A stretch of 64,000 bases of DNA from Candidatus Limnocylindria bacterium (lineage in GTDB: Bacteria; Desulfobacterota; Binatia; DP-6). Made by a program: the position numbers and the translations under genes. Below are positions 6,748-63,330 of this stretch, in pieces. Under the pieces are notes generated by a model. The model was given only the letters and a program-made list of their open reading frames with translations, ran no database searches and was not told the origin of the DNA. The stretch spans positions 670 through 64,669 of the forward strand of contig DATMAZ010000224.1 in NCBI GenBank assembly GCA_035559675.1, given 5' to 3'. Positions within the stretch are counted from its first letter, which is position 1; every line of letters starts with the position of its first letter.

Positions 6748-7105
6748 GCTCCACGTCTCATGCCCGGGCGGCGTTCGCCGATCAACCGGCGTTCGGCGCC
6801 GCAGCGCCGATTTTTCTTGACGGCGGGCGCGTCGTTGAGCAACAGTCCGGCTCGAAGGGGATTGGCACTCATGACAAGCTTCCTCGGCGATCGCATCCTG
6901 CTGTCCACCCTGCTGTATTTCGTCGCGGTGCTGATCGCGTTCGGTCCCGAGATCCGACATTCGCTCGCGCGGATCCGGGCGACCGAGCAACCCGGACGCT
7001 CTGACGGCAGCGAGCCGAGCCCCACACGCTGACGGCGCACGCCGTCGCCGGCGAGCCCCCCGCTTTCGCTTGGCGGCGCCGCTGCTACCATGACGCGGCG
7101 CCGCC

Positions 7106-9494: not shown

Positions 9495-11369
9495 ATGTCC
9501 AGCGCGCCACACCCCACCGCGGCAGCGAAGCAGCCCACGGGCACGCCCCGTCTGGCCCCGACGCCGGTCCACCCGCTCGCGGGCAAGATCATGTCGGGCG
9601 CCGACGCGGTGGTGCAGGTACTGGCAGACGAGGGCGTCGACGTCGTCTTCGGCTACAGCGGCGGGGCGATCCTTCCGACTTACGACGCCATCTTCCGGTA
9701 CAACGAGAACCGTCCCCCGAAGGAGCAGATCCGGCTGGTCGTGCCCGCCACCGAACAAGGCGCCGGCTTCATGGCGGCCGGCTACGCGCGTTCGTCCGGG
9801 CGGGTGGGCGTCTTCCTCGTCACCTCGGGTCCCGGCGCCACCAACTCGGTGACGCCCATCCGCGACTGTCAGGCCGACTCCGTCCCGGTCGTGCTCATCT
9901 GCGGACAGGTGCCGCGCGCGGCGATGGGCACTGACGCCTTCCAGGAGGCGCCGGTCTTCAACATCATGGCCGCCTGCGCCAAGCACGTCTTCCTGCTGAC
10001 CGACGCCACCAAGGTCGAGGAGACCATGCGCACCGCCTTCGACATCGCCCGCAGCGGCCGCCCGGGCCCGGTCGTGGTCGACCTGCCAAAAGACGTGCAG
10101 CTCGTCGAGCAGCCGTTCCGGGGCTCGGGGCTGCTGCCGAGCCACGGCTATCGCCGGCGCATCCAGGCGCTCGCCGACCGCCGCATCAGCCCGGAGGACG
10201 CCAAGGCCTTCTTCCGCCTGCTCGAGCAGAGCGAACGGCCCCTCATCTACGCGGGCGGGGGCACGATCAACGCCGGCGCCGCGCCGGAGCTGCGGGCGTT
10301 CGCCAAGCGCTTCGGCATTCCGGTGGTCACCACGCTCATGGGCATCGGCGCGATCGACACCACCAGCGAGCTGTCCATGCACATGCTGGGGATGCACGGC
10401 GCGGCGTACGCCAACTACGCGGTCGAGGATTGCGACTTCCTGTTTGCCGTGGGCGCGCGCTTCGACGACCGCGTCGCCGGCAAGGTGAAGGAGTTCGCCC
10501 CGGGCGCGCGCATCGCCCACCTCGACATCGACGCGTCCGAGATCGGCAAGGTGAAGGCCGTCGACTGGGCCCACGTGGCCGACGCCAAGCGCGGGCTGGC
10601 GCAGCTGCTCGAGGCCGGCGCCGGGTTCAAGAAGAACTTCCAGCCCTGGCGGGCCGCCCTGCAGCAGCTCAAGGTGCGGCACGCCTACGCGTACAACCGC
10701 GAATCGCCGCGCATCCAGGCCGAGTACGTCCTCGAGACGCTCAACAAGATCACCCGCGGCGACGCGATCGTCACGACGGGCGTGGGCCAGCATCAGATGT
10801 GGGCGGCGCAGTACCTCGACTTCCATTCGCCGCGCACGTTCCTCACCTCCGGCAGCATGGGCACGATGGGGTTCGGGCTGCCCGCGGCGATCGGCGCGCA
10901 GCTCGCCAACCCCGACAAGCTGGTGATCGACGTCGACGGCGACGGCAGCATCCGCATGAACTACGGCGAGCTCGAGATGCTCACCACCTACGACATTCCC
11001 GTGAAGGTGCTGCTGCTGAACAACCAGGGCGACGGGATGGTCCGCCAGTGGCAGGACCTCTTCTACACGAGCCGCTACTCGGGCACCGACAAGACGCTGC
11101 ACACCAAGGACTTCATCAAGGCGGTGGAAGCCGACGGCTTCAAGTTCGCCCGCCGCGTGGTCGACAAGGCCGACGTTCCGCGCGCGCTCGAGGAGTTCGT
11201 GCGCTTCCCCGGCCCCGCCTTCCTGGAGGTCATGGTGGACCAGACGGCGCACGTCTACCCGATGGTCGGGCCCGGCATGGGCTACAAGGACATGATCACC
11301 GGCAAGTGGATTCCGGCGCGTGACAAGCCGCGCGGCTCCGGCGGCGCCGATCCGACCGGAATGTTCTGA
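9495..11369 (+). CDS. Thiamine-pyrophosphate enzyme of the acetolactate synthase large-subunit family
   Basis: VVFGYSGGAILPTYDAIF N-terminal TPP-pyrimidine domain and GDG...NNQ TPP-binding motif. ATG 9495 has an AAGGAG RBS 6 nt upstream. No ilvN or ilvC is adjacent. Confidence 0.75.
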   Translation: MSSAPHPTAAAKQPTGTPRLAPTPVHPLAGKIMSGADAVVQVLADEGVDVVFGYSGGAILPTYDAIFRYNENRPPKEQIRLVVPATEQGAGFMAAGYARSSGRVGVFLVTSGPGATNSVTPIRDCQADSVPVVLICGQVPRAAMGTDAFQEAPVFNIMAACAKHVFLLTDATKVEETMRTAFDIARSGRPGPVVVDLPKDVQLVEQPFRGSGLLPSHGYRRRIQALADRRISPEDAKAFFRLLEQSERPLIYAGGGTINAGAAPELRAFAKRFGIPVVTTLMGIGAIDTTSELSMHMLGMHGAAYANYAVEDCDFLFAVGARFDDRVAGKVKEFAPGARIAHLDIDASEIGKVKAVDWAHVADAKRGLAQLLEAGAGFKKNFQPWRAALQQLKVRHAYAYNRESPRIQAEYVLETLNKITRGDAIVTTGVGQHQMWAAQYLDFHSPRTFLTSGSMGTMGFGLPAAIGAQLANPDKLVIDVDGDGSIRMNYGELEMLTTYDIPVKVLLLNNQGDGMVRQWQDLFYTSRYSGTDKTLHTKDFIKAVEADGFKFARRVVDKADVPRALEEFVRFPGPAFLEVMVDQTAHVYPMVGPGMGYKDMITGKWIPARDKPRGSGGADPTGMF

Positions 11370-11422
11370 CGTCCGGGAGCTACGCGCGCACACGCCGTCT
11401 CTTCCTGGCGCTGCTCGGCGCG

Positions 11423-12811
11423 GTGTATGCGATCGCCTTCGCGTCGCTCGGTGTCCAGGTGGACGGCCTCGTCGGCGAGGCGGGCATCCTGCCGGCGGGC
11501 GAGTTCCTGCGGCGCGTGGCCGACCGGCTCGGGCCCGACGCGTACGCGCGCCTGCCGACGATCTGCTGGCTCGTCGGTGCCGACGCCAGGACCCTACAGC
11601 TCCTCTGCGCCGCCGGCGTGGCGTGCGGGCTGGCGCTCCTGGCCGGCGTCCTCCCGGGGCCGGCAGCGCTGGCCGCCTGGGCCCTCTACCTCTCGCTCGT
11701 CGGCGTCGGGCAGGTGTTCCTCGCCTTCCAGTGGGACGCGCTGCTGCTCGAGAGCGGGCTCCTGGCGCTGCTCATCGCTCCCTGGCGGCTGCGGCCGCCG
11801 GCGTGGAACCCGAGCGCCGTCGGGCTGCTGCCGCTCTGGTGCCTGGTCGCCAAGCTGCACCTGCTGTCCGGCTGGGTGAAGCTCGCGAGCGGCGATCCTA
11901 CGTGGTGGAATCTCACCGCGCTCCACTACCACTACTGGACCACCTGTCTCCCGGTGTGGGTCGGCTGGTACGCCGCCAAGCTTCCGGACCTCGTGCAGCG
12001 CGCGAGCGTGCTCGTCATGTTCGCCATCGAGCTCGGCGCGCCGTTCGCCATCCTGGGCCCCCGGCGTCTCCGCCATGCCGCCGCGGCCGCGATGATCGCT
12101 CTGCAGCTCGCGATCGCCGTCACCGGGAACTACGGGTTCTTCAATCTGCTCACCATCGCCCTCTGCGCGACGCTCTTCGACGACGCGGCGCTGGCGCGCG
12201 TCCTGCCTTTCGTGCGGGCGCCGGTTGCCCGGCGGCCGTCGGCCCCGCGTCGCCTGCTGGCAGCCGCCGCCGCGGCAGCGGCGTGCGGGCTCGTGCTCCT
12301 CCCGCTCGCGGCACGCGTCGTCCTTCCGGAGGCGCTGGCGCGCCCGGCGCTGCACGCGCTCGAGGCGCTGGCGCCGCTGCATAGCGTGAACGCCTACGGC
12401 CTGTTCGCCAACATGACGACGGTGCGACCCGAGATCGTGGTCGAGGGCTCGGACGACGGCGTGCACTGGCGTCCGTACGAGTTCCGCTGGAAGCCGGGCG
12501 ACCCGCACCGCCGGCCGGGGTTCGTCCAGCCGCACATGCCGCGGCTCGACTGGCAGATGTGGTTCGCCGCCCTGCAGGGCTACCAGCGGACGTACTGGTT
12601 CGGCCCGTTCCTCGACCGCCTTCTCGACGGCAGCCCCGCGGTCACCCGTCTGCTCGGCGAGCAACCGTTCCCCGGCAGTAGGCCGCGCTACGTGCGCGCC
12701 GTCCTCTATCGCTACGAGTTCGCCTCGCCCGCCGAGCGGCGCGCCGGCCTCTGGTGGCGGCGCGAGCCCATCGGCATGTACACGCCGGTGAGACGGCGCG
12801 CCGACCCCTAG
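11423..12811 (+). CDS. Lipase maturation factor (LMF1)-family integral membrane protein
   Basis: Multiple TM helices; conserved HYHYWT and MPRLDWQMWFAAL-type motifs of the LMF family. GTG start, the first start codon after the upstream stop. Confidence 0.6.
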   Translation: MYAIAFASLGVQVDGLVGEAGILPAGEFLRRVADRLGPDAYARLPTICWLVGADARTLQLLCAAGVACGLALLAGVLPGPAALAAWALYLSLVGVGQVFLAFQWDALLLESGLLALLIAPWRLRPPAWNPSAVGLLPLWCLVAKLHLLSGWVKLASGDPTWWNLTALHYHYWTTCLPVWVGWYAAKLPDLVQRASVLVMFAIELGAPFAILGPRRLRHAAAAAMIALQLAIAVTGNYGFFNLLTIALCATLFDDAALARVLPFVRAPVARRPSAPRRLLAAAAAAAACGLVLLPLAARVVLPEALARPALHALEALAPLHSVNAYGLFANMTTVRPEIVVEGSDDGVHWRPYEFRWKPGDPHRRPGFVQPHMPRLDWQMWFAALQGYQRTYWFGPFLDRLLDGSPAVTRLLGEQPFPGSRPRYVRAVLYRYEFASPAERRAGLWWRREPIGMYTPVRRRADP

Positions 12812-17355: not shown

Positions 17356-18780
17356 TCAATCGAACGTCATCGGCCGCACGTTGGCCGGCACGTGCAACGG
17401 CGCGGCGGTCGCCCGGCGCACGTCGTCGATCTCGATCCCCGGCGCCACCTCGCGGAGCACGAAGCCGTCGGCGCCGACGTCGATCAGCGCGAAGTCCGTC
17501 ACCACGGTGCGCACGCAGCGCGCCGCCGTGAGCGGATACGTGCACCGCTCGACCAGCTTCGGCGCTCCGTCGCGCGTGAGGTGGAACATCACGACCACGA
17601 CGCGGGCTGCCCCGGCCGCGAGGTCCATGGCGCCGCCGATGCCGCCCACCCCGCTCGCCGGCACGTTCCAGTTGGCGAGGTCGCCACGGGCCGACACCTG
17701 AAAGCCGCCGAGCACCACGGTCGTCACCCGGCCGCTGCGCGCCATGCCGAAGGCGCTCGCGCTGTCGAAGTAGCTGGCACCCGGGTACTGGCGGACGAGC
17801 TGCCCGCTCGCGTTGTAGGCGTCGATGTCCTCCTCGCCGGGCGCGGCGAGCGGCCCGAAGCCGAGCATGCCGTTCTCGGAGTGGAGCACCACGCCGTCGG
17901 CGGGCTCGAGCGCGCTCGACACGAGCGTCGGGAGCCCGAGCCCCAGGTTGACGTACTCGCCGGGCGCCAGCAGCCGGGCCACGCGACGGACCATCAGATC
18001 GGGCGGGATGCCGCGCGGGCCGCTCGCCCGCTCGCGGACCTCCAGGTCCCACTGCCGTCCCCAGCGACGGGAGAGCTCGCGCACCGTCGCCGCATCGAGC
18101 GGGTGCTCGGTGCGCACCACGCGGTCGACGTACACGCCCGGCGTGACGACCGCTTCCGGATCGAGGTCACCCATCGCCACCACGTCGTCCACCTCCGCGA
18201 TCGTCGTACGGGCCGCCGTGGCCATCACGGGATTGAAGTTGCGCGCGCCCCGCCGGTAGACGAGGTTGCCGGCGCGGTCGGCTCGCGAGGCGCGCACGAG
18301 CGCCACGTCGCCGCGCAGCGCCGTCTCCAGCACGTAGCGGCGGCCGTCGAACTCGCGCACCTCGGCGTCGCGGCGCACCTCGGTGTCCGCGCCCGTCGGC
18401 GTATAGAACGCGGCGAGCCCGGCTCCGCCCGCGCGGAGCCGTTCGACCAGCGTGCCCTGCGGGACCAGCTCGAGCTCGATGCGCCCCGCGCGGATGCCGG
18501 CCTCCATCGGTGTCCGCTGCTTCGGATAAACGGCGTAGCTGGCGACGAGCTTTCGCACCAGCCCCGCCTCGGCGAGGATCTGCGGCGACGTCGGCCCCAC
18601 GCCCGGCGTGTTGGCGACGATGGTGAGATCGCGCGCGCCGTGGTCGCGCAGCGCGGTGAGGAGCGACGTCGGCCAGCCTTGAACCACGCCGAAGCCGCCG
18701 ATCAGCACGGTGGCGCCGTCCCGCACGTCCGCCACCGCGGCCCGGGCGCTGGCGAGCACCTTCTCCATGTCGCGCCTCAT
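17356..18780 (-). CDS. 3-oxoacid CoA-transferase, fused subunits A+B
   Basis: A-subunit N-terminus (VLIGGFG...) and B-subunit (ENGMLGFGP, SGVGGIGGAMD) in one polypeptide. Confidence 0.75.
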   Translation of the reverse strand: MRRDMEKVLASARAAVADVRDGATVLIGGFGVVQGWPTSLLTALRDHGARDLTIVANTPGVGPTSPQILAEAGLVRKLVASYAVYPKQRTPMEAGIRAGRIELELVPQGTLVERLRAGGAGLAAFYTPTGADTEVRRDAEVREFDGRRYVLETALRGDVALVRASRADRAGNLVYRRGARNFNPVMATAARTTIAEVDDVVAMGDLDPEAVVTPGVYVDRVVRTEHPLDAATVRELSRRWGRQWDLEVRERASGPRGIPPDLMVRRVARLLAPGEYVNLGLGLPTLVSSALEPADGVVLHSENGMLGFGPLAAPGEEDIDAYNASGQLVRQYPGASYFDSASAFGMARSGRVTTVVLGGFQVSARGDLANWNVPASGVGGIGGAMDLAAGAARVVVVMFHLTRDGAPKLVERCTYPLTAARCVRTVVTDFALIDVGADGFVLREVAPGIEIDDVRRATAAPLHVPANVRPMTFD

Positions 18781-18835
18781 AGGCGCCCCGGGCGGGGATC
18801 GACAAGAGGCGGCGGCGTTTCCTAGAGTCGCGGCC

Positions 18836-20134
18836 GTGGCGGCGGCGCTTCCTCTGGTCGGCGACGACGGCTTCGTGCCGAAGGAACGCTACACGGAGCG
18901 TGCGTTCCTCGACGCCGAGCTCGAGCGGCTCTGGCCGCGGGTCTGGCAGATCGCCTGCCGCGAAGAGGAGATCGCCGAGGTCGGCGCCTGGATCGAGTAC
19001 ACGATCGGCGACGACTCCATCCTCGTCGTGCGCAACGCCCCCGGCGAGGTGTCGGCCTTCCACAACGCCTGCCCGCACCGCGGCACGCGGATCGCCTCGG
19101 GCGCCGGCCGCGCCACCGACGGCCGCCTCACCTGCCCCTTCCACGGCTGGTGCTACGGGCTCGACGGCACGCTCGTCGACGTCCCCGACCGCCACGAGTT
19201 CACGAATCTGCCCGCCGGGCTCCGCCTGCCGCCGGTCCGCACCGCCTCGTGGGGCGGGTTCGTTTTCATCACACTGGCCGCCGACGTCGAGCCGCTGCTC
19301 GAGTTCCTCGACCCGCTGCCCACGCTGCTGGCGCCCTATCGCCTCGACGAGCTGCGGCTCCGTTCGTACCTCACCACCATTCTGCCGGCCAACTGGAAGG
19401 CGGTGGTCGATGCCTTCAACGAGGCCTACCACGTGCAGCGCGCCCACGCGCAGATCCTGCCGTGGACCGACGACACCAGCATCGCCTACGAGCAGTTTCG
19501 CACCCACGCGCACTACGGCCGCCTGCCGAACGCGCGCCGCCGGCTGCGGCCGAGCCCGCGGCTCGGCCCCGCCGCGTCCGACGTCGACGAGGGCGCGATC
19601 CTGAGCGCGCTGGTGGCCGGGCTCGGCGGCGCCTTCTTGAAGGAGGAGCGCGCGATCGTCGCCGAGCTGCGCGCCGCCGCCCATCCCCCGGGGACCGACC
19701 TCCTGGCGCTGTTCCAGCGCCGCCGCATGGAGCTGCTGGCCTCGCGCGGATTCGACGTCTCGGGGTTCGAGCCCGACCAGATGACGAGCGCCGACGACGT
19801 GTACTGGTTCCCGAACGTCGTCGGCCCGATCTATCCCGGCAGCGCGCTTCTCTTCCGCGTGCGCCCGAACGGACGCGATCCGCACAGCGCGATCCACGAC
19901 ACCTGGGTGCTGGAGTGGCCGGCGCCGGGCAGCACCCGCCCGCTCGAGCGGCGCTTCTTCGCCAATTGGCGCGAGCGGGACTGGGGCGAGATCACCACGC
20001 AGGACTACGAGAATCTGGAGCGGGTACAGGCCGGCATGCGCTCACGGGCGTTTGCGGGGCTACGGCTCAACCCGCGCCAGGAGAGCAACCTCCTCCACAT
20101 GCACCGCGTGATCGATCGCTACCTCACCGCCTGA
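18836..20134 (+). CDS. Rieske [2Fe-2S] non-heme iron oxygenase alpha subunit
   Basis: Rieske motif CPHRG...CPFHGW. The GTG start at 18836 is chosen to avoid overlap with the divergent CoA-transferase. An upstream in-frame GTG at 18710 is the alternative start. Confidence 0.65.
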   Translation: MAAALPLVGDDGFVPKERYTERAFLDAELERLWPRVWQIACREEEIAEVGAWIEYTIGDDSILVVRNAPGEVSAFHNACPHRGTRIASGAGRATDGRLTCPFHGWCYGLDGTLVDVPDRHEFTNLPAGLRLPPVRTASWGGFVFITLAADVEPLLEFLDPLPTLLAPYRLDELRLRSYLTTILPANWKAVVDAFNEAYHVQRAHAQILPWTDDTSIAYEQFRTHAHYGRLPNARRRLRPSPRLGPAASDVDEGAILSALVAGLGGAFLKEERAIVAELRAAAHPPGTDLLALFQRRRMELLASRGFDVSGFEPDQMTSADDVYWFPNVVGPIYPGSALLFRVRPNGRDPHSAIHDTWVLEWPAPGSTRPLERRFFANWRERDWGEITTQDYENLERVQAGMRSRAFAGLRLNPRQESNLLHMHRVIDRYLTA

Positions 20135-20486
20135 GATACACGCCGATCCGGCGGATGAGCTCGGCGGACGAGACGTCGAACACGACCGCCTCCTCGGTGC
20201 GCCGCCGCCCGCCGGCTGCGTCGACCGTCTCGCTGAGCTCGACCACCACCACGTCGCCCGCGACCAGGCAGCGCGTCACCGACAGCTCGTAGCCCGCGAG
20301 CGTGCGGAACACGGCACGCAGGTAGTCCACGTACGGCGTGCGACCCTGATAGACGTCACCGTACGGGCCCGTCCGCTCGACGTCCGGCTCCAGCGTGGCG
20401 GCGAGCGCCGCCCAGTCCTGCACCGCGAGCGCCGCCAGATAGCGCTCGACGACGCTCAGGACGCCCGGCACGGCCCCCGCCTGCAC
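20124..20486 (-). CDS. NTF2/SnoaL-like fold protein
   Basis: About 120-aa C-terminal part of the ORF resembles SnoaL-like polyketide cyclase and NTF2 proteins. GTG start inferred. Downstream of the SDR gene on the same strand. Confidence 0.4.
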   Translation of the reverse strand: MQAGAVPGVLSVVERYLAALAVQDWAALAATLEPDVERTGPYGDVYQGRTPYVDYLRAVFRTLAGYELSVTRCLVAGDVVVVELSETVDAAGGRRRTEEAVVFDVSSAELIRRIGVYLRR

Positions 20487-54041: not shown

Positions 54042-54800
54042 TCAGCCGGCCATGGTGAGGCCGCCGGAGACGCTCAGCACCTGCCCGGTCACGTACTCCG
54101 CTCCGTCAGATGCGAAGTACGCGACCGCCGCCGCCACGTCCTCCGGCTGGCCGAAGCGTCCGAGGGGAATCGCCCGCCGCACCGCGTCCATGATCTTGGC
54201 GCCGCGAGCCGAGCCGCGCACCTGGTCGAGCAACGCGGTCTCGGTCGGTCCCGGGCAGATCGCATTCACGGTGATGCCCTGGCGCGCCACCTCGCGCGCC
54301 AGCGACTTGGTGAAGCCGATGAGCCCGGCCTTGCAGGCGGCATAGACCGTCTCGCCCATGCTGCCCACGCGCCCGGCGTCGGAGGACACGTTGACGATGC
54401 GGCCGCCGCGGCGCGCCGTCATGCCGTCGAGCACGGCACGCGTGACGCTGAACGCCCCGCGGAGGTTGATGGCGATGAGCCGGTCCCAGAGCGCCGGCTC
54501 GTTCTCCATGAAGGGCTCGAGGCGGTCCCAGCCGGCGTTGTTCACCAGCACCCACAGGGGTGGCAGCCGGGCCTCCACCTCCAGCACCGCCGTCGCCACC
54601 CCCGCCTGATCGGTCACGTCGAGCGGGAACGCGGCGGCCTCGCCCCCGGCGGCCCGGATGGCCGCCGCCGTACGTTCGGCCTCGGCGCCGTCGCGGTCGG
54701 TGACCGCTACCGCCAGGCCCGAGTCGGCGAGCGCCCGCGCCACGGCGGCGCCGATGCCGCGCGCGGCCCCGGTGACCAGCGCCGAGCGGGCCGCCGCCAT
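54042..54800 (-). CDS. SDR-family 3-oxoacyl/3-hydroxyacyl reductase (FabG-like)
   Basis: TGAARGIG, NNAG, catalytic Y-x3-K (YAACK). Confidence 0.8.
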   Translation of the reverse strand: MAAARSALVTGAARGIGAAVARALADSGLAVAVTDRDGAEAERTAAAIRAAGGEAAAFPLDVTDQAGVATAVLEVEARLPPLWVLVNNAGWDRLEPFMENEPALWDRLIAINLRGAFSVTRAVLDGMTARRGGRIVNVSSDAGRVGSMGETVYAACKAGLIGFTKSLAREVARQGITVNAICPGPTETALLDQVRGSARGAKIMDAVRRAIPLGRFGQPEDVAAAVAYFASDGAEYVTGQVLSVSGGLTMAG

Positions 54801-54802
54801 GC

Positions 54803-55234
54803 TCAGCGACGTCCCGGCAGCGCCGCGGTGAACGTGCCGGTGACGGCCGTCTCGCCGGTCTGGCGGGTGGCCACGAGCTCGCCGTCGATGCGCCGCTCGC
54901 CGTCGGCCTCGTACTTCCTCGTCACCCGGCCGGTGCACGTGATGCGGTCGCCCGGCCAGACGCGCGTCGCGAAGCGGACCTTGTAGCGCCGGAGGTTCTC
55001 CACGCCGACGGCGTCGGTGAGGCACTTGGCGAGCAACCCGGCGGTCAGCATGCCGTGCCCGAACACCGTGGGGTTTCCCGCCGCCTTGGCGAACTCCTCG
55101 TCGTGATGGATCGGGTTGAAGTCCCCCGAGGCGCCCGCGTAGCGCACGAGATCGGTACGCGTGAGCTTCTCTACCACGAACGGCGGCAGCTCGGTGCCCT
55201 CCTGCACGTCGTCGAAGGCCCAGGCCATGGTCAC
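54803..55234 (-). CDS. MaoC-like (R)-specific enoyl-CoA hydratase hotdog domain
   Basis: MaoC dehydratase signature ...GDFNPIHHDEEFAKAAG... Confidence 0.75.
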   Translation of the reverse strand: MTMAWAFDDVQEGTELPPFVVEKLTRTDLVRYAGASGDFNPIHHDEEFAKAAGNPTVFGHGMLTAGLLAKCLTDAVGVENLRRYKVRFATRVWPGDRITCTGRVTRKYEADGERRIDGELVATRQTGETAVTGTFTAALPGRR

Positions 55235-55677
55235 TCCTTCACCGCGTCGGCGGTCTCGATGAGGGTGTTCCGCATGTAGGCCACCACCTCGCCGCGCTGG
55301 TTCCTGAACTCCGTCTCGCCCAGCACGAAGGTCATCGTGCCGCCGCGCTTGCCCTGCTTCTCGAACACGTCCTTCGTGCGGGAGCGAAAGGTGAGGACGT
55401 CACCGGCGCGAATGGGCCGCAGGTATTCGAACTCCTGCTCGCCGTGCAGCAGCCGGCGGTAATCGAGCTTCATGCCCTGGCGCGTCTCGCCCAGGCTTCC
55501 CACCCAATGCGCGATGGTCATGAGGAAGGTGGGCGGCGCGGGCGGCGCGTCGCCGGTCGTGAAGACCGGGTTGTCGTCCTTCACGGCGCGCGCGAACTCC
55601 ATGATTTTGCCGCGCTCCACGCAGAGCCGCCCTTCTGGCCCCCATTGTCCGATGACGCTGCGGTCGATCTCCGCCAT
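55231..55677 (-). CDS. MaoC N-terminal-like hotdog domain protein (partner subunit)
   Basis: Hotdog fold without the catalytic HxxxD motif; 4-nt overlap with the downstream MaoC gene; ChsH1/ChsH2-like pair arrangement. Confidence 0.6.
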   Translation of the reverse strand: MAEIDRSVIGQWGPEGRLCVERGKIMEFARAVKDDNPVFTTGDAPPAPPTFLMTIAHWVGSLGETRQGMKLDYRRLLHGEQEFEYLRPIRAGDVLTFRSRTKDVFEKQGKRGGTMTFVLGETEFRNQRGEVVAYMRNTLIETADAVKE

Positions 55678-55688
55678 GCGGCTCGCCC

Positions 55689-56825
55689 TCAGAGGTTGAT
55701 CAGCTGCGCCACCAGCTCGCGGTTCCAGGTGGCGTCGCCGAAGGTGACTTCCGAACTCTTCGCCCGCTTGAAGTACAGATGCATGTCGTGCTCCCAGGTG
55801 AAGCCGATGCCGCCGTGGATCTGGATGCCCTCGCCGGCGGTGTGGCGGTACGCGTCCGAGCAGTACGCCTTCGCCATGGCGGCCGCGAGCGGCGCCTCGG
55901 CGACGTCGTTCGCCACCGCCCAGCCGGCGTAGTACGTGATCGACTTCGAGCTCTCCACCTCGACCAGCATGTTGGCGCACTTGTGCTGGATCGCCTGGAA
56001 GCTGCCGATGGGCCGGCCGAACTGTTCGCGCACCTTGGCGTACTCGACCGACATGTCGAGGACGCGTTGCGCGCCCCCGCACATCTCGGCGCAGAGCGCC
56101 ACCTTGGCGCGATCGACGACGCGCTCGAGGAGCCGCCAGCCATCACCCACGGCGCCCAGCACGCGCTCGGCGCCCACCGCCACGTTGTCGAGCCGCACCT
56201 CGGCCAGCTTGCGCGTCTGGTCCATGGTCTTGAGCAGGGTGGTCGTGACGCCGGGCGCGGTGCGGTCCACGAGGAAGAGCCCGATGCCGTCGCGGCCGGT
56301 CGAGCCGGGCTCGCGGCCCGCCACGACCAGCAGGTCGGCCGTGTGGCCGTCCGGCACGAAGAGCTTCGTTCCGGAGAGGCGATAGCCCGCGCCGTCGCGC
56401 TTCGATTCGAGCGCGATGCCGTCGGCGTCCCAGCGCCCGGACGGCTCGAGCTGCGCCACGGTGGCGATCCGTTTGCCCGCCGCGATCGCCGGGAGCCATT
56501 CCTGCTTCTGCGCGTCGCTGCCGCCTTCGAGGAGCGCCACGGCGCCGAGCGCCACCGTGGAGAAGAACGGCCCAGGTGTGACGAGCCGGCCCATCTCCTC
56601 GAGCACCACCACCAGGTCGACGAACGTGAGCCCGCTGCCGCCGTACTGCTCCGGGAGGATGAGCCCCATCCATCCGAGCTCGGCCATCTGCCGCCAGACG
56701 GCATCCGTGAAGCCGCGGTCGTCGTCCATCATCTTCCGGACGTAGGGAATGTCGCATTCCTTCGTGAGGAAATCGCGCGCGGCGCTGCGGAGCATCTCCT
56801 GCTCTTCGCTGAAGCCAAAATCCAT
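55689..56825 (-). CDS. Acyl-CoA dehydrogenase
   Basis: ACAD N, middle and C-terminal domains; the catalytic Glu is in YAGWAVANDVAEAPL... (the G367 site discussed in the hunt); FAD-binding. Confidence 0.8.
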   Translation of the reverse strand: MDFGFSEEQEMLRSAARDFLTKECDIPYVRKMMDDDRGFTDAVWRQMAELGWMGLILPEQYGGSGLTFVDLVVVLEEMGRLVTPGPFFSTVALGAVALLEGGSDAQKQEWLPAIAAGKRIATVAQLEPSGRWDADGIALESKRDGAGYRLSGTKLFVPDGHTADLLVVAGREPGSTGRDGIGLFLVDRTAPGVTTTLLKTMDQTRKLAEVRLDNVAVGAERVLGAVGDGWRLLERVVDRAKVALCAEMCGGAQRVLDMSVEYAKVREQFGRPIGSFQAIQHKCANMLVEVESSKSITYYAGWAVANDVAEAPLAAAMAKAYCSDAYRHTAGEGIQIHGGIGFTWEHDMHLYFKRAKSSEVTFGDATWNRELVAQLINL

Positions 56826-56874
56826 GGTCTCGGTCGAGTACCAGAATTCCTTCAGGGGTGCCAAGAACGACCCG

Positions 56875-57477
56875 TCACCCCGCTCCAACCGCGCGTCCAC
56901 CACGTGCGCCCGTCGCCGCGACGGGGCCGTCGCCCGAGGGCTCGGACGACGAGCGCCGCACCTCGTCGAGGATGAGCGACGCGTAGTACTCGAGGTTGCG
57001 CCCGATCAGGACGGGATCGGGCGCGTCGCCGACGCGTGCATAGACGGCCGTGCCGCTGGCGTTGCTGGCACCGACGACCAGCGCAAGCTCGCGCCCGTGG
57101 GCGTCGCTCACGTAGACGCGCAGCGCCCCGTCGTCGAAGCCGAACGCACGCTCGTCGGCGTCGCCGGCAGGCACGCGCTCGATCTCCTCCAGGGCCGTCA
57201 GCGCCTCGACGAACGCCTGCACCAGGCCCGCGGGCACCTGGCCCCCGGGCGGCTGCTCCACGGTCCACTGCTCGCCGTAGCGCCGCAGCGCCACGGCCGC
57301 ACCATCGCGCTCCATGCGGACGCCCACGACCTCGTTGGTGGGCAGCTCGGCCAGCAGCCGGCGCCGTTCGGGTCGCTCGGCCGGCGGGACGGTCGGGCGG
57401 CGGCGATCGACGAGCCAGTACTGGGCGGCGAGCCCGCTCGCCACCAGCCAGAGCACGATCACCTGCCGCCAGCGCAT
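56875..57477 (-). CDS. DUF4340-like membrane-anchored protein (accessory to the GldG-type ABC system)
   Basis: N-terminal TM anchor; position immediately downstream of gldG-like; family assignment tentative. Confidence 0.4.
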   Translation of the reverse strand: MRWRQVIVLWLVASGLAAQYWLVDRRRPTVPPAERPERRRLLAELPTNEVVGVRMERDGAAVALRRYGEQWTVEQPPGGQVPAGLVQAFVEALTALEEIERVPAGDADERAFGFDDGALRVYVSDAHGRELALVVGASNASGTAVYARVGDAPDPVLIGRNLEYYASLILDEVRRSSSEPSGDGPVAATGARGGRAVGAG

Positions 57478-57478
57478 T

Positions 57479-58861
57479 TCAGCCCCACCGCCGCCGCGCC
57501 GCGAGCACCAGCCCGACGACCAGGAAGACGGCTGGCTGCAGAATGACCGTCTGCCAAAAGATCCGGTCGCCCTGCTCGTCGGTGACGTAGAACTGGTTCA
57601 CGCCGGGGATGGCGCGTTCCGGCCGGTGCGTCATCGCCGCCTCGTCCTCGCTCACCCAGGCAATCGCGTTCAGCACCAGGTCCTTGTTCCCGAGGTAGTC
57701 GAGGAAGAAGTTGTTCGCAAAGTCCGAGTCGCCGAGCACCACGAGCCGCCCCCGTCGCTCAAGCATGCCGGGCTCGCGGAGACCCGGAAACGTCACCGCC
57801 ACGCCCACCGGAACCGGCCCGCGTTGATCGCGACCCTCGACGAACGTGGCGCTTCCCTGGCGGAGCGCGCTCGTGTCGGGCGTGCTCCAGCTCTCCCGGC
57901 TGGTGAACAGGAAGGGCTCCGCCACGATCGTCCCGGCCTCCTCCGGCGTGCCCGTTCGCACCGGCCGGACCCGCGAGAACAGCGGGTCGGCGGTTAGCGG
58001 CGCCACGATCGGATGGCTGCGCTCGCCGGTGACGAGCCGCATGGTCAACCACTCGCCGCCGTGGAGACGGCCGCTCGGATCGACCACGATCTCCTCGTCG
58101 AGCGCCACCTGGTAGCGCGAGAGCGAGCGCGCCAGCTCCGGCGCCTTCAGCGGATCCAGCATGATCAAGGCGCGGCCCGGCTGTTGCAGGTAGCCGTTCA
58201 GCACCGCCAGCTCCTCGGGGAGAAAGTCCTGCTTGGGGCCGGCAATCACCACGGCATCCGTATCGTCCGGAATCCCCGCCGTGCCGAGCGTCGTCGGACG
58301 CACGACGTACTGCTCCTCGCCGAGCACGCGGCGCAACCGCGCGAACCCCGTCTGCCGCTCGGTGCTCTCGATGTCGCCCTCCCCGTGACCGACCACCCAC
58401 GCCAGCCGCCGCGGCGTCGGCCGCGTGACCGCCAGCAGCCCGGCCAGCAACGAGTCCTCCGTGGGATTCGACACGAGGCGGCGCCGCCCGCCCGCCTCGA
58501 GCACCACGCCCACGCCGTAGACCTCGTACTCGCGTGCCAGCGCCGGCGCACGATTGAGGTCGAGCATCTCGACCTCGATGCGCGGCGTCACCGCCGTCAC
58601 CTGGGTCAGGAGATCGCGGATGGGCACGTTGCGCGGGTCCATCGAGCGAAGGAACGCCAGGGCTCGCACGTCGACGTCGAGATCGCGCAGCACCTCGCGG
58701 GCACGCGGCGAGAGCGTGTAGCGCCGTTCGGGCGTGAGGTCGGCCCGCCAGCCGCGCGCGTCCAGCACCAACTGGCCGAAGATGAAGATCCCGACCAGCG
58801 CGGGAAGCGCCGCGGCGAGCCGCACCCACTGCGCGCCGGCGGTCAGCGGCGGCCGCGCCAC
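57479..58861 (-). CDS. GldG-like ABC-type transport auxiliary component
   Basis: N- and C-terminal TM anchors around a large periplasmic domain typical of the GldG family. GTG start overlaps the permease stop. Confidence 0.65.
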   Translation of the reverse strand: MARPPLTAGAQWVRLAAALPALVGIFIFGQLVLDARGWRADLTPERRYTLSPRAREVLRDLDVDVRALAFLRSMDPRNVPIRDLLTQVTAVTPRIEVEMLDLNRAPALAREYEVYGVGVVLEAGGRRRLVSNPTEDSLLAGLLAVTRPTPRRLAWVVGHGEGDIESTERQTGFARLRRVLGEEQYVVRPTTLGTAGIPDDTDAVVIAGPKQDFLPEELAVLNGYLQQPGRALIMLDPLKAPELARSLSRYQVALDEEIVVDPSGRLHGGEWLTMRLVTGERSHPIVAPLTADPLFSRVRPVRTGTPEEAGTIVAEPFLFTSRESWSTPDTSALRQGSATFVEGRDQRGPVPVGVAVTFPGLREPGMLERRGRLVVLGDSDFANNFFLDYLGNKDLVLNAIAWVSEDEAAMTHRPERAIPGVNQFYVTDEQGDRIFWQTVILQPAVFLVVGLVLAARRRWG

Positions 58862-59589
58862 TGTCGCGCCTCCAGCACGCGCAGCGTGCCCCACCAGAAG
58901 CCCGCGGTGAGCGCGAGGAAGTAGAACACGTCGCGCACCTCGATGACCCCCACCGAGAACGACTGAAAGTGATCGAACAGGGACAGCGCTCGCAGGATGG
59001 TCACCGTGTCGGCGCCGACCGCCGCCTCGTTCCACGACAGGAGCCAGAGAAGAAAGAGCGGCATCACCGTGAGGAAGCCGGCGAGCACCTGGCTCGAGGT
59101 GAGCGACGACACGAAGAGCCCGTAGGCGATGCAGGTCGAGGAGAGGAGCAGCAGCCCGAGATACCCGGCGGCGATCGGGGGCAGCGCGAAGGGCTGCACC
59201 GCGTAGATGAGCGCGGGATACGTCGTCGTGGCGGCGAGCAACGCGCCCACCGCCACGAGGCAGGCCACGAACTTGGCGGCCACCACCGCCTGGTCGCTCA
59301 GCGGGTAGGTGAGCAGCAGCTCGAGCGTCCCGAGCCGGCGCTCCTCGGCGAGAAGCCCCATCGTGAGCAGCGGAATCGACAGGATGAGCACGAGGCGCAC
59401 GTCGAAGAAGACCAGCTGCCACAGGTTCTCCATGATGTTCATGCCGAACCCGAAGGTGAGGAAGTAGACGAGGTCGGAGTGCAGGTAGAAGCCCGTGTAG
59501 GCGAGGAACGCCGCCGCCACGAGGTACCAGAGCGGTCCCCCGAAGTAGACACGCAGCTCCTTGCGCAGTAGCGCGACGAACGGCGTCAT
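58843..59589 (-). CDS. ABC-2 type transporter permease (GldF-like)
   Basis: Six TM helices; ABC-2 family pattern. Confidence 0.75.
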   Translation of the reverse strand: MTPFVALLRKELRVYFGGPLWYLVAAAFLAYTGFYLHSDLVYFLTFGFGMNIMENLWQLVFFDVRLVLILSIPLLTMGLLAEERRLGTLELLLTYPLSDQAVVAAKFVACLVAVGALLAATTTYPALIYAVQPFALPPIAAGYLGLLLLSSTCIAYGLFVSSLTSSQVLAGFLTVMPLFLLWLLSWNEAAVGADTVTILRALSLFDHFQSFSVGVIEVRDVFYFLALTAGFWWGTLRVLEARQWRGRR

Positions 59590-59590
59590 C

Positions 59591-60544
59591 CTAGCCCACC
59601 AACCGCACGAACAGGTCCTCCAGCGTCGGCTCCTCCGCGCGGATTTCGAGCAGGGTCCAGCCGCGTGCCACCACCAGGCTCGCGAGCCGGGCCTGCACGT
59701 CGCGGGCGTCGCTCGTGCGCACCACCCAGGTGCGCCCCGCCCCCGCCGCCTCGGGTCTCGACTCGACGGCGCTCACGCCGGCAAGCTCGGCGAGCGCGGC
59801 CCGCACGTCTTCTGGCGGTCCGTCGATGCGGACGACCACGCTGTTCGTCCACCCGAGGCGGCGGGCGAGCCCCTCCGGGGTGTCGTCGGCCACCAGCCGG
59901 CCCTCCTTCAGCACGATCACCCGCCGGCAGAGCTGGCTCGCCTCGGCGAGCAGATGGGTCGACAGCAGCACGGTGCAGCGGGCGAGCGACTTGAGCAGCG
60001 CTCGCATCTCGACCGTCTGCATGGGATCGAGCCCGACGGTCGGCTCGTCGAGCACCAGCACGTCGGGGTCGCCGAGCAGCGCCTGCGCGAGCCCCACGCG
60101 CTGGCGGTAGCCCTTCGACAGCGTCCCGGCAAATCGGCTCGCCATGGGGCCGAGCCCGCAGGCCTCGATCACGTGCTCGACGGCCGCGCGCGCGGCCGTG
60201 CCGCTGAGGCCCTTCGCGCCGGCGACGAAGCGCAGGTAGCGGCGGACGGTGAGCTCCGGGTAGAGCATCACCTGCTCGGGGAGGTAGCCGATGCGCGAGC
60301 GCTCGCGCACCGGGTGCATGGTCACGTCCCGGCCGTCGAGCAACACGCGGCCGCTGGTCGGCGAGAAGAAGCCGATGAGGCAGCGCATGAGCGTGCTCTT
60401 CCCGGACCCGTTGGGTCCGAGCAGCGCCGCCACCTCGCCGCGGCCCACCCCGAACGACACGTCCGAGACGGCCCGCGTCGCGCCGTAGAACTTCGTGAGC
60501 TGTTCGACCGCGATCAGCGGCGCGTCAGTGCCCGGACTGCCCAC
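59591..60544 (-). CDS. ABC transporter ATP-binding protein (GldA-like)
   Basis: Walker A GPNGSGKST, signature LSKGYRQRV, Walker B VLVLDEP. Confidence 0.85.
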   Translation of the reverse strand: MGSPGTDAPLIAVEQLTKFYGATRAVSDVSFGVGRGEVAALLGPNGSGKSTLMRCLIGFFSPTSGRVLLDGRDVTMHPVRERSRIGYLPEQVMLYPELTVRRYLRFVAGAKGLSGTAARAAVEHVIEACGLGPMASRFAGTLSKGYRQRVGLAQALLGDPDVLVLDEPTVGLDPMQTVEMRALLKSLARCTVLLSTHLLAEASQLCRRVIVLKEGRLVADDTPEGLARRLGWTNSVVVRIDGPPEDVRAALAELAGVSAVESRPEAAGAGRTWVVRTSDARDVQARLASLVVARGWTLLEIRAEEPTLEDLFVRLVG

Positions 60545-60647
60545 CCTGCTCTCTTCGCCGCCGCCGCCGCGCGTGGATGACCTCGTCCACCGCGATCAAG
60601 AGGAAGCTGAAGCCGAGGCAGATGCCGACCGATTCCCAGAGTCCCAT
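60525..60647 (-). CDS. Possible 40-aa small membrane peptide
   Basis: ATG 60647 with a GAGGAG RBS 6 nt upstream; one hydrophobic helix then an Arg-rich tail; overlaps the ATPase start by 20 nt. Confidence 0.3.
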   Translation of the reverse strand: MGLWESVGICLGFSFLLIAVDEVIHARRRRRREQGGQSGH

Positions 60648-60657
60648 GACGTGCTCC

Positions 60658-63330
60658 TCAGCTCGCCGCCTGCGCGGTTTGGATGTGCTGGCGGCGGTGG
60701 CCGCGGGCTGCTTCGCGCATGATGAACTTTGGCCGCACGAGCGCGATCAGCACCGGCATCAGCGTTTCCGCCGCGACGAAGCTCACCATCATCCACACCG
60801 CGAGAAAGCCGCCCATTACCGCGTTGAAGCGAATATTCGAGAGCATCCAGAGCGCGGTGCTGAACACCATGCAGACCGCGGTGAAACTCACCGCCTTCCC
60901 GGACGTGCAGAGCGCCTCACGAATCGCCTGATCGAGATCGCCCGAAATGCGGATCTCCTCGATAACGCGGCTCACGATGTAGAGGCCGTAGTCGATACCG
61001 AAGCCGACGCCGACGGTGACGAGCGGCAGCGTGTTGATATTGATGCCGATCCCGAGGGTGGCCATGAGGCCGTTCACCAGGATGTTGGAGATGAAGAGCG
61101 GCGCCAGCAGCAGGAACCCGGCGATCGCCGAGCGGTAGGTGAAGAACACGATAACGAACATCGTGCCGAAGCCGAGCGCGTTCATCATGAGGTCGTTGCG
61201 CACCAACTCCTCGTTAGCCGCGGCCAGCACCCCGATGAGCCCGCCGGCCAGCTTGAACTCCGCCTTTTCCATCGGGTTCTCGGCAATGAACTCTTTGGCG
61301 CGAGCGATGATGCGCGCCACGTTGTCGCCCTGGTGGTTACGGCAGAAGAAGGTAACATGCGCGGTCTGGTAGTCCGGCGTCACGTACTTCGACGTCTCGG
61401 TCGGCGGCGAGTTCGCGAAGAACACGAAGAACGTCTGGCCGACGTCACGGGCCGTGTTCGGCACCACGCCCCATTTCGGCTCGAACTCGTGGAACACCTG
61501 GTTCACCGTGCGCAGGATGTCGGTGAGCGAGAAGCTGTAGCCGACGTCCGGGTCGCGCTCGAGGAAGCGCTGGAACTTCTCCATCGTGCGCAGCGCTTGC
61601 GGGTCCTTCATGGCGTCGCGGTCGTACCCCTCGGCCACCACGATGAGCGGCTCCACGCCGCCGAACTTCTCCTGGATGTGGGCGTGCGAGACGTTGTAGG
61701 GCGAATCCTCCCAGACCAGCGGCGAGGCCGAGGTCGGGTCGCCGACGATCAGCCCCCGCATCTGCAAGAGGCCGATCACCGTGACGACGCCCCAAAACGT
61801 CAGCGTCGCGGCCTTGCCGACCCGCGAAAGGTTCCAGTCGGTCACGCGGTTGATGAGCGCCCGGTACCAGCCCTTTTCACGCGCCTGCACGACCTCGGGA
61901 TCGGGCGCGCGCAGATAGTAGTAGACGATGGGGTTCAGCAGCATCTCCGCGACGGTGATCGCGAGAATCCACCACGAGGCCACGATCGCCAGCTTCCGCA
62001 GCATGACGATCGGCACCAGCATGACGACCAGCACGCCGAAGGCGTCGGTCAGAATGCCCGAGAGCGTCGGGATAAAGAGCTCCGCGAAGGCCGCCACGAT
62101 GGCCGATTTTTGGTCCCATTTGTGGCGTTCGAACTCTTCGTAGTAGCGGTCGTGCATCTGGATCGCGTGGCTCACCGCGCGCGCCGTGATGAGGAACGGC
62201 ATCACCAGGATCAACGGGTCGAGCGCGAACCCGATGAGGTGCACGAAGCCGAGGCCCCAGAAGGCGGCGATCACGCCGGTGAGCGTCGGCCGCAGCGAGC
62301 CGCGCCAGTCGTGGAAGTACATCCAGCGGAGGATCCACTCGAGGCAGTAGGTCAACGTGAAGATCAGGAAGACGTCGTTGGCGTAACTGTACACCCAGCC
62401 ATAGAGCCGCGGCTCACCGGCGACGTAAATGCGCATGTCGGGCGCGCGCTTGGTGAGCTCAACCGGCTGCTCCGCGCCGGCCCGCTTTACCGTGAGCGTG
62501 ACCCTGTCGCCCGGCTCGTGAGCCGCCATCACCAGCGCGAGCGCCGTCCGGTCGGCCACCGGTCGGCCGTCCACGGCCGTGATGATGTCGCCCGCCTTCA
62601 GCCCGGCCTCGGCGGCGGCCGTGTCGGGATAGACCACCTCGATCTCGGCCGGCTGGATCTCGTCCTTCTTGAGGACGTTGCGCCCCTTCACGAGGGCGCC
62701 GATCCAGCCGCCCTCGAACGGCGCGATCACGTTCTCGTTGATTTCGGTGAACGTCCGGCGGTGGTCGAGGCGGCCCTCAATGAAGTTGGCGCGGATCAGC
62801 GCGGCGCGATCGTCGAGCGAGACGAGGATGCCGTAGATGCTTTCGGTGTTGTGAACGATGCGGCGGATCGCCGCCGCGTCCTTGGGGGTCTTGGGCAGCC
62901 CCACCATGACCGGCTCGGCCCGGAGAAAACCGCCCGAGAGCGCCTTCAGGTAGCGCGTGGTGCGGTGGCCGATCGAATCGATCTGGTTGTGGTTCACGCC
63001 ATAGACCTGATCCACGGCCTCCGTCATCCGGTAGATCCGGGCCAGCGTCTCGACCGTGAAGATGTTCCCCTGCTCGACCTCCACCATGATCTGCACGTTG
63101 TTCGCACCGCCGAACGTCGGCGCGTACTTGTTGTGCACCGCGACGAAGGGGTGGCTCTGAGGCAGCAGGTCGCCGAAGCTCGTCTCGAGCTTCAGCTGGA
63201 AGCTCCAGTAGGCGAACATCGCCGTCACCAGCAGCACGAGGATCGACACCGGGTGGCGGTACTGGATCAGCTTTTCGCCGAGCCAATAGAGGGCTTGCTT
63301 GTCCTGGGCGCTCGTCTCACCGGCACTCAT
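60658..63330 (-). CDS. RND-superfamily (MMPL/HpnN-like) exporter with a PDZ domain embedded in the first periplasmic loop
   Basis: 12 TM helices in 1+5/1+5 topology with two large periplasmic loops. PDZ-like segment VVYPDTAAAEAGLKAGDIITAVDGRPV...DRVTLTVKRAG at about 62440-62650. GC about 60%. Confidence 0.75.
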   Translation of the reverse strand: MSAGETSAQDKQALYWLGEKLIQYRHPVSILVLLVTAMFAYWSFQLKLETSFGDLLPQSHPFVAVHNKYAPTFGGANNVQIMVEVEQGNIFTVETLARIYRMTEAVDQVYGVNHNQIDSIGHRTTRYLKALSGGFLRAEPVMVGLPKTPKDAAAIRRIVHNTESIYGILVSLDDRAALIRANFIEGRLDHRRTFTEINENVIAPFEGGWIGALVKGRNVLKKDEIQPAEIEVVYPDTAAAEAGLKAGDIITAVDGRPVADRTALALVMAAHEPGDRVTLTVKRAGAEQPVELTKRAPDMRIYVAGEPRLYGWVYSYANDVFLIFTLTYCLEWILRWMYFHDWRGSLRPTLTGVIAAFWGLGFVHLIGFALDPLILVMPFLITARAVSHAIQMHDRYYEEFERHKWDQKSAIVAAFAELFIPTLSGILTDAFGVLVVMLVPIVMLRKLAIVASWWILAITVAEMLLNPIVYYYLRAPDPEVVQAREKGWYRALINRVTDWNLSRVGKAATLTFWGVVTVIGLLQMRGLIVGDPTSASPLVWEDSPYNVSHAHIQEKFGGVEPLIVVAEGYDRDAMKDPQALRTMEKFQRFLERDPDVGYSFSLTDILRTVNQVFHEFEPKWGVVPNTARDVGQTFFVFFANSPPTETSKYVTPDYQTAHVTFFCRNHQGDNVARIIARAKEFIAENPMEKAEFKLAGGLIGVLAAANEELVRNDLMMNALGFGTMFVIVFFTYRSAIAGFLLLAPLFISNILVNGLMATLGIGININTLPLVTVGVGFGIDYGLYIVSRVIEEIRISGDLDQAIREALCTSGKAVSFTAVCMVFSTALWMLSNIRFNAVMGGFLAVWMMVSFVAAETLMPVLIALVRPKFIMREAARGHRRQHIQTAQAAS

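Follow-up and report, generated by a model that had tools for sequence, protein, structure and literature searches.

The window analyzed here is a stretch of 64,000 nucleotides from an uncultured soil bacterium (contig DATMAZ010000224.1, assembly GCA_035559675.1), and near its end it contains a gene for an 890-residue membrane pump of the resistance-nodulation-division (RND) type that carries a PDZ domain within the first of its two large periplasmic loops. This is almost certainly a real and conserved architecture of the pump. It has been catalogued by automatic annotation and is undescribed in the searched literature, where nothing relevant was found on a PDZ domain in an RND, MMPL, HAE3 or MmpL transporter. 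Regarding the role of the domain, we tentatively propose that it docks a periplasmic partner protein encoded in the same gene neighborhood.

A preliminary description of this DNA had reported a canonical PDZ fold at positions 62440-62650, and suggested a Pfam scan, a structure prediction and a survey of homologous proteins as checks. The peptide that it quoted is present in the open reading frame (ORF) as residues 229-292 (window 62455-62646, minus strand). Its coordinates, given without a strand, were right to within a few bases, but they missed the N-terminal quarter of the domain, with the first strand and the carboxylate-binding loop. Two further aspects escaped it, the second PDZ site in loop 2 of relatives and the gene neighborhood. 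Three Pfam models recognize the domain well above their cut-offs: PDZ_2 (E 7.6e-14, 52.2 bits against 27), PDZ_6 (E 2.8e-12, 46.6 bits against 27) and PDZ (E 1.2e-10, 42 bits against 23.2). The fold was also predicted by AlphaFold (AF2), with strands at 212-214, 228-233, 249-253, 276-283 and 286-293 and helices at 238-241 and 261-269; a model of the domain alone (residues 198-302, 34 homologues) reached a pLDDT of 91.8 and a pTM of 0.82. Foldseek aligned this model with PDZ1, the first PDZ domain, of DegQ, DegP, DegS, MucD and HtrA (E 5e-8 and weaker, TM scores of 0.68-0.76, 29-34% identity). HtrA-family PDZ1 domains make up nearly all of the 50 best PDB matches listed, over which the TM scores range from 0.6 to 0.76. 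The profile of the 34 homologues matched DegP-like and DegQ chains in the PDB with E values of 1e-27 to 1e-25, and matches to the PDZ domains of RseP and DegS were also found.

The conservation of the domain was examined in 56 homologues, to which all conserved positions given below refer. Residues G208, D248 and R283 are invariant, and W209, G211, A212, A239, L244, G255 and R261 are at least 90% conserved. Four of these ten residues lie in the segment G208-A212, which the profile alignment places over the GWLGV carboxylate-binding loop of a DegP-like protease. The PDZ1 domains of DegP, DegQ, DegS and MucD/AlgW, which are periplasmic like that of the pump, have in common with it this G-[WY]-Phi-G-Phi loop and an A-x-x-A-G-L-x-x-G-D motif. 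They differ in that the pump has no protease domain and carries its PDZ as an internal insertion in a transporter rather than as a C-terminal module, and in the window-type subfamily the stretch that joins the first strand to the second is shortened. Only one further PDZ-like sequence was found in the window by tblastn with the pump PDZ. It lies in a 770-residue protein (7094-9403, plus strand) composed of a peptidase C13 (legumain/caspase-like) region, a PDZ domain and a C-terminal thioredoxin/redoxin domain, and it is 41% identical to the pump PDZ over 71 residues.

The assignment of the host protein to the RND/MMPL transporters, and of the PDZ to its first periplasmic loop, holds by sequence, hydropathy and predicted structure. 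Pfam MMPL (PF03176) covers residues 552-867 with 88.4 bits against a cut-off of 20.5 (E 5.5e-25). The top NCBIfam match is the HAE3 model TIGR00921 (E 2.1e-35), although its 122 bits stay below the curated cut-off of 351.9, so that the pump is HAE3-like and not a member by this model. The MMPL, HpnN and MmpL3 models follow in rank, together with DegP/HtrA-family models for residues ~220-293. Hydropathy and a full-length AlphaFold model (56 homologues in the alignment, mean pLDDT 79.4, pTM 0.74) gave 12 transmembrane (TM) helices arranged as 1+5 and 1+5, with large periplasmic loops between TM1 and TM2 and between TM7 (residues 504-531) and TM8. The pLDDT across the PDZ is 77-91. The full-length model matched MmpL5, MmpL4, MmpL3, NPC1-like proteins and HpnN in Foldseek, with E values of 2e-23 to 1e-17. 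In the TM4 region R384, S387 and H388 are invariant and D371 nearly so, and in the TM10 region the motif G-x-D780-x-G-x-Y784 and S787/R788 are invariant; these residues are candidates for the charged or polar positions that MMPL-type pumps have within TM4 and TM10 for proton coupling.

The protein is identical to NCBI entry HWP67490.1 and also occurs, identical, on an independent 3.4-kb Logan contig. The entry is labelled 'Candidatus Limnocylindria bacterium' (Chloroflexota). Its close relatives (75-92% identity) all come from metagenome-assembled genomes (MAGs) of Binatia or 'Deltaproteobacteria', which makes the Limnocylindria label, or the binning, look doubtful. Many long ORFs in other frames overlap the genes on both strands between 57759 and 63902 (e.g. 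57759-58829 minus, 59561-60580 plus and 61877-62338 minus). Their G+C is not distributed over the codon positions as in real genes, and they are regarded as by-products of the G+C content of 71%.

The insertion point is well defined. In the full-length model, loop 1 runs through a strand (176-183), a helix (190-205), the PDZ and a final strand (299-305) before TM2 begins at residue 306, and the final strand carries an invariant AGEPRLYGW motif. Relatives without the PDZ have a 17-residue turn exactly at this point, so that the domain is a clean insertion into the porter subdomain, as had been proposed. Because strand 299-305 runs straight into TM2, the hairpin and its PDZ are expected at the tip of the N-terminal porter subdomain, on the side away from the membrane. 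The coordinates of these elements and of the neighboring genes are given in Table 1.

Table 1. Features of the PDZ-bearing pump and of its neighboring genes in the window, in the direction of transcription
Feature	Position	Strand	Evidence
Ycf48-like BNR beta-propeller gene directly upstream of the pump; truncated at the end of the window, which includes its C-terminal 216 aa	63349..64000	-	Pfam PSII_BNR, E 2.2e-20
RND (MMPL/HAE3-type, AmeD-like) transporter gene	60658..63330	-	2,673-nt ORF, 890 aa, inserted PDZ
TM1, ~aa 26-49	63184..63255	-	Hydropathy; AF2 helix 25-43
N-terminal periplasmic porter subdomain up to the insertion (aa 50-205), with helix 190-205 as its last element	62716..63183	-	AF2
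Inserted HtrA-type PDZ domain, aa 206-296	62443..62715	-	Pfam, AF2, Foldseek
Predicted carboxylate-binding loop, G208-W-I-G-A212	62695..62709	-	Conservation; profile alignment
Last porter-subdomain beta-strand, aa 299-305, directly into TM2	62416..62436	-	AF2 strand, then helix 306-316
TM2-TM6 bundle, aa 306-475	61906..62415	-	AF2 helices; conserved columns
C-terminal periplasmic porter subdomain, aa 532-697, without insertion in the window protein	61240..61737	-	AF2
Loop-2 counterpart of the PDZ insertion point (~aa 685-690), flanked by helix 668-684 and strand 690-694; empty in the window	61261..61278	-	Alignments
TM8-TM12 bundle, aa 698-868	60727..61239	-	AF2 helices; invariant columns; Pfam MMPL
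ABC transporter ATPase	59591..60544	-	Pfam ABC_tran, E 4.4e-34
ABC-2 type permease	58843..59589	-	Pfam ABC2_membrane_2
GldG-like ABC auxiliary protein, start approximate	57479..58846	-	Pfam ABC_transp_aux, E 1.1e-22
DUF4340 protein, last gene of the ABC module	56875..57477	-	Pfam DUF4340, E 4e-8
Acyl-CoA dehydrogenase after the module	55689..56903	-	Pfam Acyl-CoA_dh domains; same position in locus L057

The survey of homologues showed that the architecture is common among close relatives and rare beyond them. The 120 best homologues of the window protein (70-100% identity) all combine MMPL and PDZ domains, and the same is true of the 120 best for P0123, a relative at 50% identity that stands for a second clade with the loop-1 PDZ. 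Both sets together list 181 distinct 90% clusters, every one with the two domains, down to ~50% identity, and NCBI names these proteins 'MMPL family transporter' or 'PDZ domain-containing protein'. When 1.84 billion cluster representatives were searched exhaustively, 21,364 relatives emerged, and the wider family was compared through the ~125 full-length 50%-identity representatives among the best 150 of these. Nearly all have 770-800 residues, of which 17 fall at the loop-1 site and 16-20 at its counterpart in loop 2, and P0123 alone has an insert of more than 100 residues at the loop-1 site. The preliminary description was therefore correct in considering the insertion a nonstandard architecture.

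A scan of species-representative genomes gave 55 loci (numbered with the prefix L), nearly all from MAGs of Binatia, 'Deltaproteobacteria' or Myxococcales, and four pump architectures: no insert (~790 residues); the loop-1 PDZ (~890 residues), to which the window protein belongs; an insert of ~100 residues in loop 2 after window residue 688 (~889 residues); and inserts in both loops (~987 residues). The insert in loop 2 is clearly, by profile comparison, a divergent PDZ homologous to that of loop 1. It matches Pfam PDZ_2 below threshold (E 1e-3 to 1e-4), it aligns with the loop-1 PDZ profile at 94.5% probability and 18% identity in hhalign, and its own profile finds in the PDB the PDZ tandem of an Aquifex RseP homologue (E 3.1e-9). 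Its sequence combines a DLGI loop, which is conserved, with a PF-x-x-GD motif and an internal extension of 15-30 residues that contains two invariant Trp. At merely 18% identity between the two domains, a recent duplication was rejected. Five relatives have both PDZ domains (L010, L011, L012, L015 and L032), and others have that of loop 2 alone (L033-L045 and L049).

The two sites are pseudo-symmetric: each follows the last helix of a porter subdomain and precedes its last strand, just before TM2 or TM8. The loop-2 site is also an insertion hot spot in more distant relatives, which have inserts of 41-393 residues before TM8 (P0135, P0139, P0158, P0174, P0179, P0182, P0185, P0193, P0212 and P0242). 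The insert of P0242 is an FG-GAP beta-propeller, and most of the others matched no Pfam family. RseP offers the nearest precedent in layout, with a PDZ tandem between TM segments of a polytopic inner-membrane protein. RseP is a metalloprotease with few TM helices and both PDZs in one loop, whereas the RND relatives are 12-TM pumps that carry theirs in separate loops, at sites related by pseudo-symmetry.

With 70-72% identity, the PDZ-less group L013-L030 is nearer to the window protein than the other PDZ-bearing clades are (58-63%). The simplest history therefore seems to be that the domain was lost in paralogues that are no longer beside the partner genes described below. The tree of architectures is a rough one, obtained by neighbor joining, and was used for the patchy distribution only and not for counts of gain and loss. 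In several long-read 'MFD' MAG contigs (L031, L043, L046, L047, L050, L054 and L055) the pump ORF is frameshifted and the tblastn matches run on across the breaks; these are more likely assembly errors than pseudogenes.

The presence of the PDZ strongly tracks a specific gene module. In 26 of the 29 PDZ-bearing loci that could be assessed, a gene for a Ycf48-like BNR protein lies immediately upstream of the pump, and in most of these a gene for a small secreted NTF2/DUF4878-like protein is found upstream and an ATP-binding cassette (ABC)/GldG/DUF4340 module downstream. None of the 20 loci of the same clade with PDZ-less pumps has BNR, NTF2-like or ABC-module genes beside the pump; their neighbors are unrelated. 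The second clade with the loop-1 PDZ (L057/L058), at 58% identity, has the same order: small protein, BNR, pump, ABC, ABC-2, GldG-like, DUF4340 and acyl-CoA dehydrogenase. Full-length relatives of the BNR protein have ~360 residues and a lipobox-like ...G-C, and in these relatives it is a lipoprotein. The NTF2-like gene, found solely in PDZ-bearing loci, lies just upstream of the BNR gene (at ~8100-8800 each in L001, L002, L004, L006, L012, L015, L028, L033, L036, L038, L040 and L049, and at 7915-8469 in L057), and related loci also have a sigma-54 response regulator gene upstream. The NTF2-like product has a conserved [KE][WY]FP motif near the C-terminus, followed by a variable tail of 1-30 residues.

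By full-length homology to a pump of Aromatoleum aromaticum EbN1 and by the adjacent BNR gene, the window pump is assigned to the AmeD lineage. The nearest annotated relative from a cultured organism is a 791-residue MMPL protein encoded on plasmid 2 of EbN1, where it belongs to a cluster of YCF48-related, MMPL, DUF1302, DUF1329 and NTF2-family genes among beta-oxidation-like genes. The two pumps align over 858 columns at 31% identity (E 3e-143), and the single long gap coincides exactly with the PDZ. AmeD itself, an HAE3 pump of 787 residues, is part of the AmeABCD monoterpene tolerance system of Castellaniella defragrans (PMC6394551). Genes of the DUF1302, DUF1329, BNR and RND families show cofitness in Shewanella and Pseudomonas (bioRxiv 10.1101/072470; 10.1101/2020.07.04.188060), and a cluster of the Ycf48/RND/DUF1302/DUF1329 type is highly expressed in an anaerobic benzene degrader (PMC13101534).

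The window locus is similar to the AmeABCD-type clusters in its 12-TM HAE3/MMPL pump with two periplasmic loops of ~150-170 residues, in the Ycf48-like BNR gene directly upstream, in the DUF1329 genes present in the module of several close relatives, and in its context of lipid and hydrocarbon catabolism. In contrast, AmeD-type pumps have ~790 residues and no PDZ, and in the Binatia-type module a GldG-type ABC module follows the pump and DUF1302 was not found. For DUF1302 the search by tblastn with the EbN1 protein (E 1e-4) covered the window and all fetched loci, more than 55 of Binatia type with flanks of up to 10 kb per side, and the gene could lie elsewhere in the genome. The EbN1 DUF1329 protein matched just nine loci, all of the window's own subclade, in which one or two genes for this LolA-like protein come after DUF4340 (L001, L002, L004-L007, L009, L028 and L031). 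The same protein found no match in the 64-kb window, which ends ~650 bp upstream of the pump, and DUF1329 was not found at L057 either.

The lipid or siderophore exporters MmpL3, MmpL4 and MmpL5 (HAE2) and HpnN (HAE3), whose structures are solved, have the overall fold of the pump (TM ~0.7 on the target) at 12-15% identity, with the sequence similarity in the TM8-12 region. MmpL4 and MmpL5 illustrate that an extra domain in a periplasmic subdomain is possible, as the titles of their structure entries mention a coiled-coil domain. None of these exporters has a PDZ, and the accessory proteins MmpS and AcpM are unrelated to the neighbors of the pump.

These observations can be combined in the following proposal. 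The pump would be a proton-motive-force-driven RND transporter of the MMPL/HAE3 kind that most likely moves a lipid or another hydrophobic compound out of the inner membrane, given that its lineage works with a Ycf48-like BNR protein, as AmeD does. In a clade of Binatia and relatives, a PDZ of the HtrA-protease type has been inserted into the hairpin that links the final helix of the N-terminal subdomain to its final strand. In this place the domain could be an integral docking module that captures the C-terminal tail or an exposed strand of an operon-encoded periplasmic partner, tethering the exit side of the pump to the acceptor machinery. Candidate partners would be the NTF2/DUF4878-like protein and the Ycf48-like lipoprotein, two members of the adjacent ABC system (the GldG-like and DUF4340 proteins) and, in some relatives, the LolA-like DUF1329 protein. 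The small NTF2-like protein is possibly the most attractive ligand, offered as a lead only, because it occurs solely in PDZ-bearing loci and has the conserved [KE][WY]FP motif.

We regard this docking role as plausible, if slightly short of an even chance, with peptide binding, the identity of the ligand and tethering all deduced rather than observed. The preliminary description had suggested that the domain could mediate substrate or partner recognition, and this idea gains indirect support from the intact, conserved peptide-binding loop and from the link between the PDZ and the genes for periplasmic partners. Two further observations count for docking: porter tips collect interaction domains, as seen from the second PDZ and the FG-GAP propeller at loop 2, and the lineage works with periplasmic partners, as indicated by AmeABCD, the cofitness data and the EbN1 cluster.

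Several observations weigh against a docking role. The PDZ is the most variable and fastest-evolving periplasmic segment, with a mean identity of 38% to the window protein compared with 73% for the N-terminal and 77% for the C-terminal porter subdomain, which would fit a loosely constrained accessory as well. AmeD-type pumps without a PDZ already adjoin a BNR protein, so that such a partnership does not as a rule require the domain. The loci behind the link between PDZ and module are not phylogenetically independent, and the two-PDZ subclade L010, L011 and L032 has no BNR, NTF2-like or ABC-module neighbors. A classic hydrophobic x-Phi-x-Phi C-terminus was found in none of the BNR, NTF2-like, DUF4340, GldG-like, ABC-2 permease and DUF1329 proteins, and in the NTF2-like protein a variable tail comes after the [WY]FP motif. 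In addition, the position of the domain at the tip and the accessibility of its groove are read from topology only.

Alternatively, the PDZ could be a gate or regulatory lid over the periplasmic cleft that controls access or activity. The PDZ tandem of RseP serves as a size filter, and the PDZ of DegS is an inhibitory sensor released by peptide binding. The loop-1 PDZ matches both proteins and the loop-2 insert is closest to the tandem of the RseP homologue. Moreover, the cleft is flanked by the two porter subdomains, which have their insertion sites at equivalent positions, and one clade has both sites filled; with a PDZ in loop 1 and another in loop 2 the cap would be complete. However, most members have a single PDZ, on either side, and a purely internal gate does not account for the link to the partner genes. 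We consider a gate unlikely.

The PDZ could instead bind the cargo itself, holding, on its exit from the pump, a lipid or a molecule with a peptide or acyl-peptide end (a lipoprotein, a lipopeptide or a hydrophobic peptide). HtrA-type PDZ1 domains, such as those of DegP and DegS, bind the hydrophobic C-termini of unfolded envelope proteins, and the fold match of the pump PDZ is to this type. The LolA-like DUF1329 of relatives, an Mla system near the pump of L057 and the surrounding genes of lipid and acyl-CoA metabolism point in the same direction. On the other hand, PDZ-less paralogues and AmeD-type pumps, at 31-72% identity and with a highly conserved porter domain, suggest similar small hydrophobic substrates, and no genes for lipopeptide synthesis were seen in the visible flanks. 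A cargo-binding role is rather improbable in our assessment.

Little weight is given to oligomerization, in which the PDZ would join pump protomers and stabilize dimers or trimers of the kind that HpnN and MmpL4/5 form. Contacts between PDZ1 and PDZ2 build the cages of DegP and DegQ, whose PDZ1 domains are the closest structural matches, and the closest RND structures include the trimeric MmpL5 (C3 symmetry) and the hexameric MmpS4-MmpL4 complex. Close PDZ-less paralogues presumably assemble anyway, however, and the link to neighboring genes is left unexplained. Even less probable is that the PDZ is a tolerated decoration of a permissive surface loop, with little present function and kept mainly by inertia. 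Its low conservation, its clean loss in several subclades and the many unrelated inserts accepted at the equivalent loop-2 site agree with such a history, but the domain is intact and confidently folding down to ~50% identity, its binding-loop residues are invariant or nearly so, and its presence tracks a specific gene module. Finally, a mis-assembly or false fusion of a PDZ fragment with an RND gene is ruled out for practical purposes: nothing speaks in its favor, the ORF is uninterrupted and its product recurs on the independent contig, the 181 listed clusters from many studies have the in-frame insertion at the same residue, and the full-length model is confident over both junctions.

The docking proposal can be extended to an undescribed class of Binatia-type RND pumps for lipids or hydrophobic compounds. 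HtrA/RseP-type PDZs on one or both tips would act as adaptors for the tail of a dedicated partner, most plausibly the NTF2-like [WY]FP protein or the Ycf48-like lipoprotein, and couple the pump physically to the adjacent GldG-type ABC transporter in place of the DUF1302/DUF1329 outer-membrane route used by canonical AmeABCD systems. This extension is speculative and, taken as a whole, unlikely; if true, it would represent a new assembly of an envelope-spanning RND machine without a classical membrane-fusion adaptor. How HAE3/MMPL-type pumps hand over hydrophobic cargo to the rest of the envelope is poorly understood, and the Ycf48/DUF1329/DUF1302-associated lineage is known solely from the genetics of AmeABCD, cofitness screens and the proteomics of hydrocarbon degraders. 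A small PDZ at the porter tip, predicted to fold alone, offers a handle for finding the physical partner of this lineage. The series of pumps with no PDZ, one in loop 1, one in loop 2 or both, together with the FG-GAP insert, marks the hairpins before TM2 and TM8 as an evolvable interaction surface, a pattern useful for interpreting other MMPL/HAE3 proteins and possibly for engineering. The result overturns nothing, and the hosts are uncultured, which limits direct tests.

The genes around the module fit a role in lipid or hydrocarbon metabolism. In the window the acyl-CoA dehydrogenase gene is followed by a short-chain dehydrogenase gene, and the regions 17356-20134 and 54042-56903 encode a CoA transferase, the alpha subunit of a Rieske ring-hydroxylating oxygenase, an acyl-CoA dehydrogenase and a short-chain dehydrogenase. 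This context agrees with the reported richness of Binatota genomes in the catabolism of alkanes and other hydrocarbons (PMC8262859). At L057/L058, genes for Mla-type lipid transport (MlaD, an ABC ATPase and MlaE; 17562-20176, minus strand) come immediately after the module on the opposite strand. In L010 (6683-7690), and at the equivalent position in L032, a diacylglycerol-kinase-like lipid kinase gene lies directly after the pump. The window also encodes, at 11324-12811 on the plus strand, a bacterial homologue of the eukaryotic lipase maturation factor (Pfam LMF1, E 2e-46; LMF1_C, E 7e-47).

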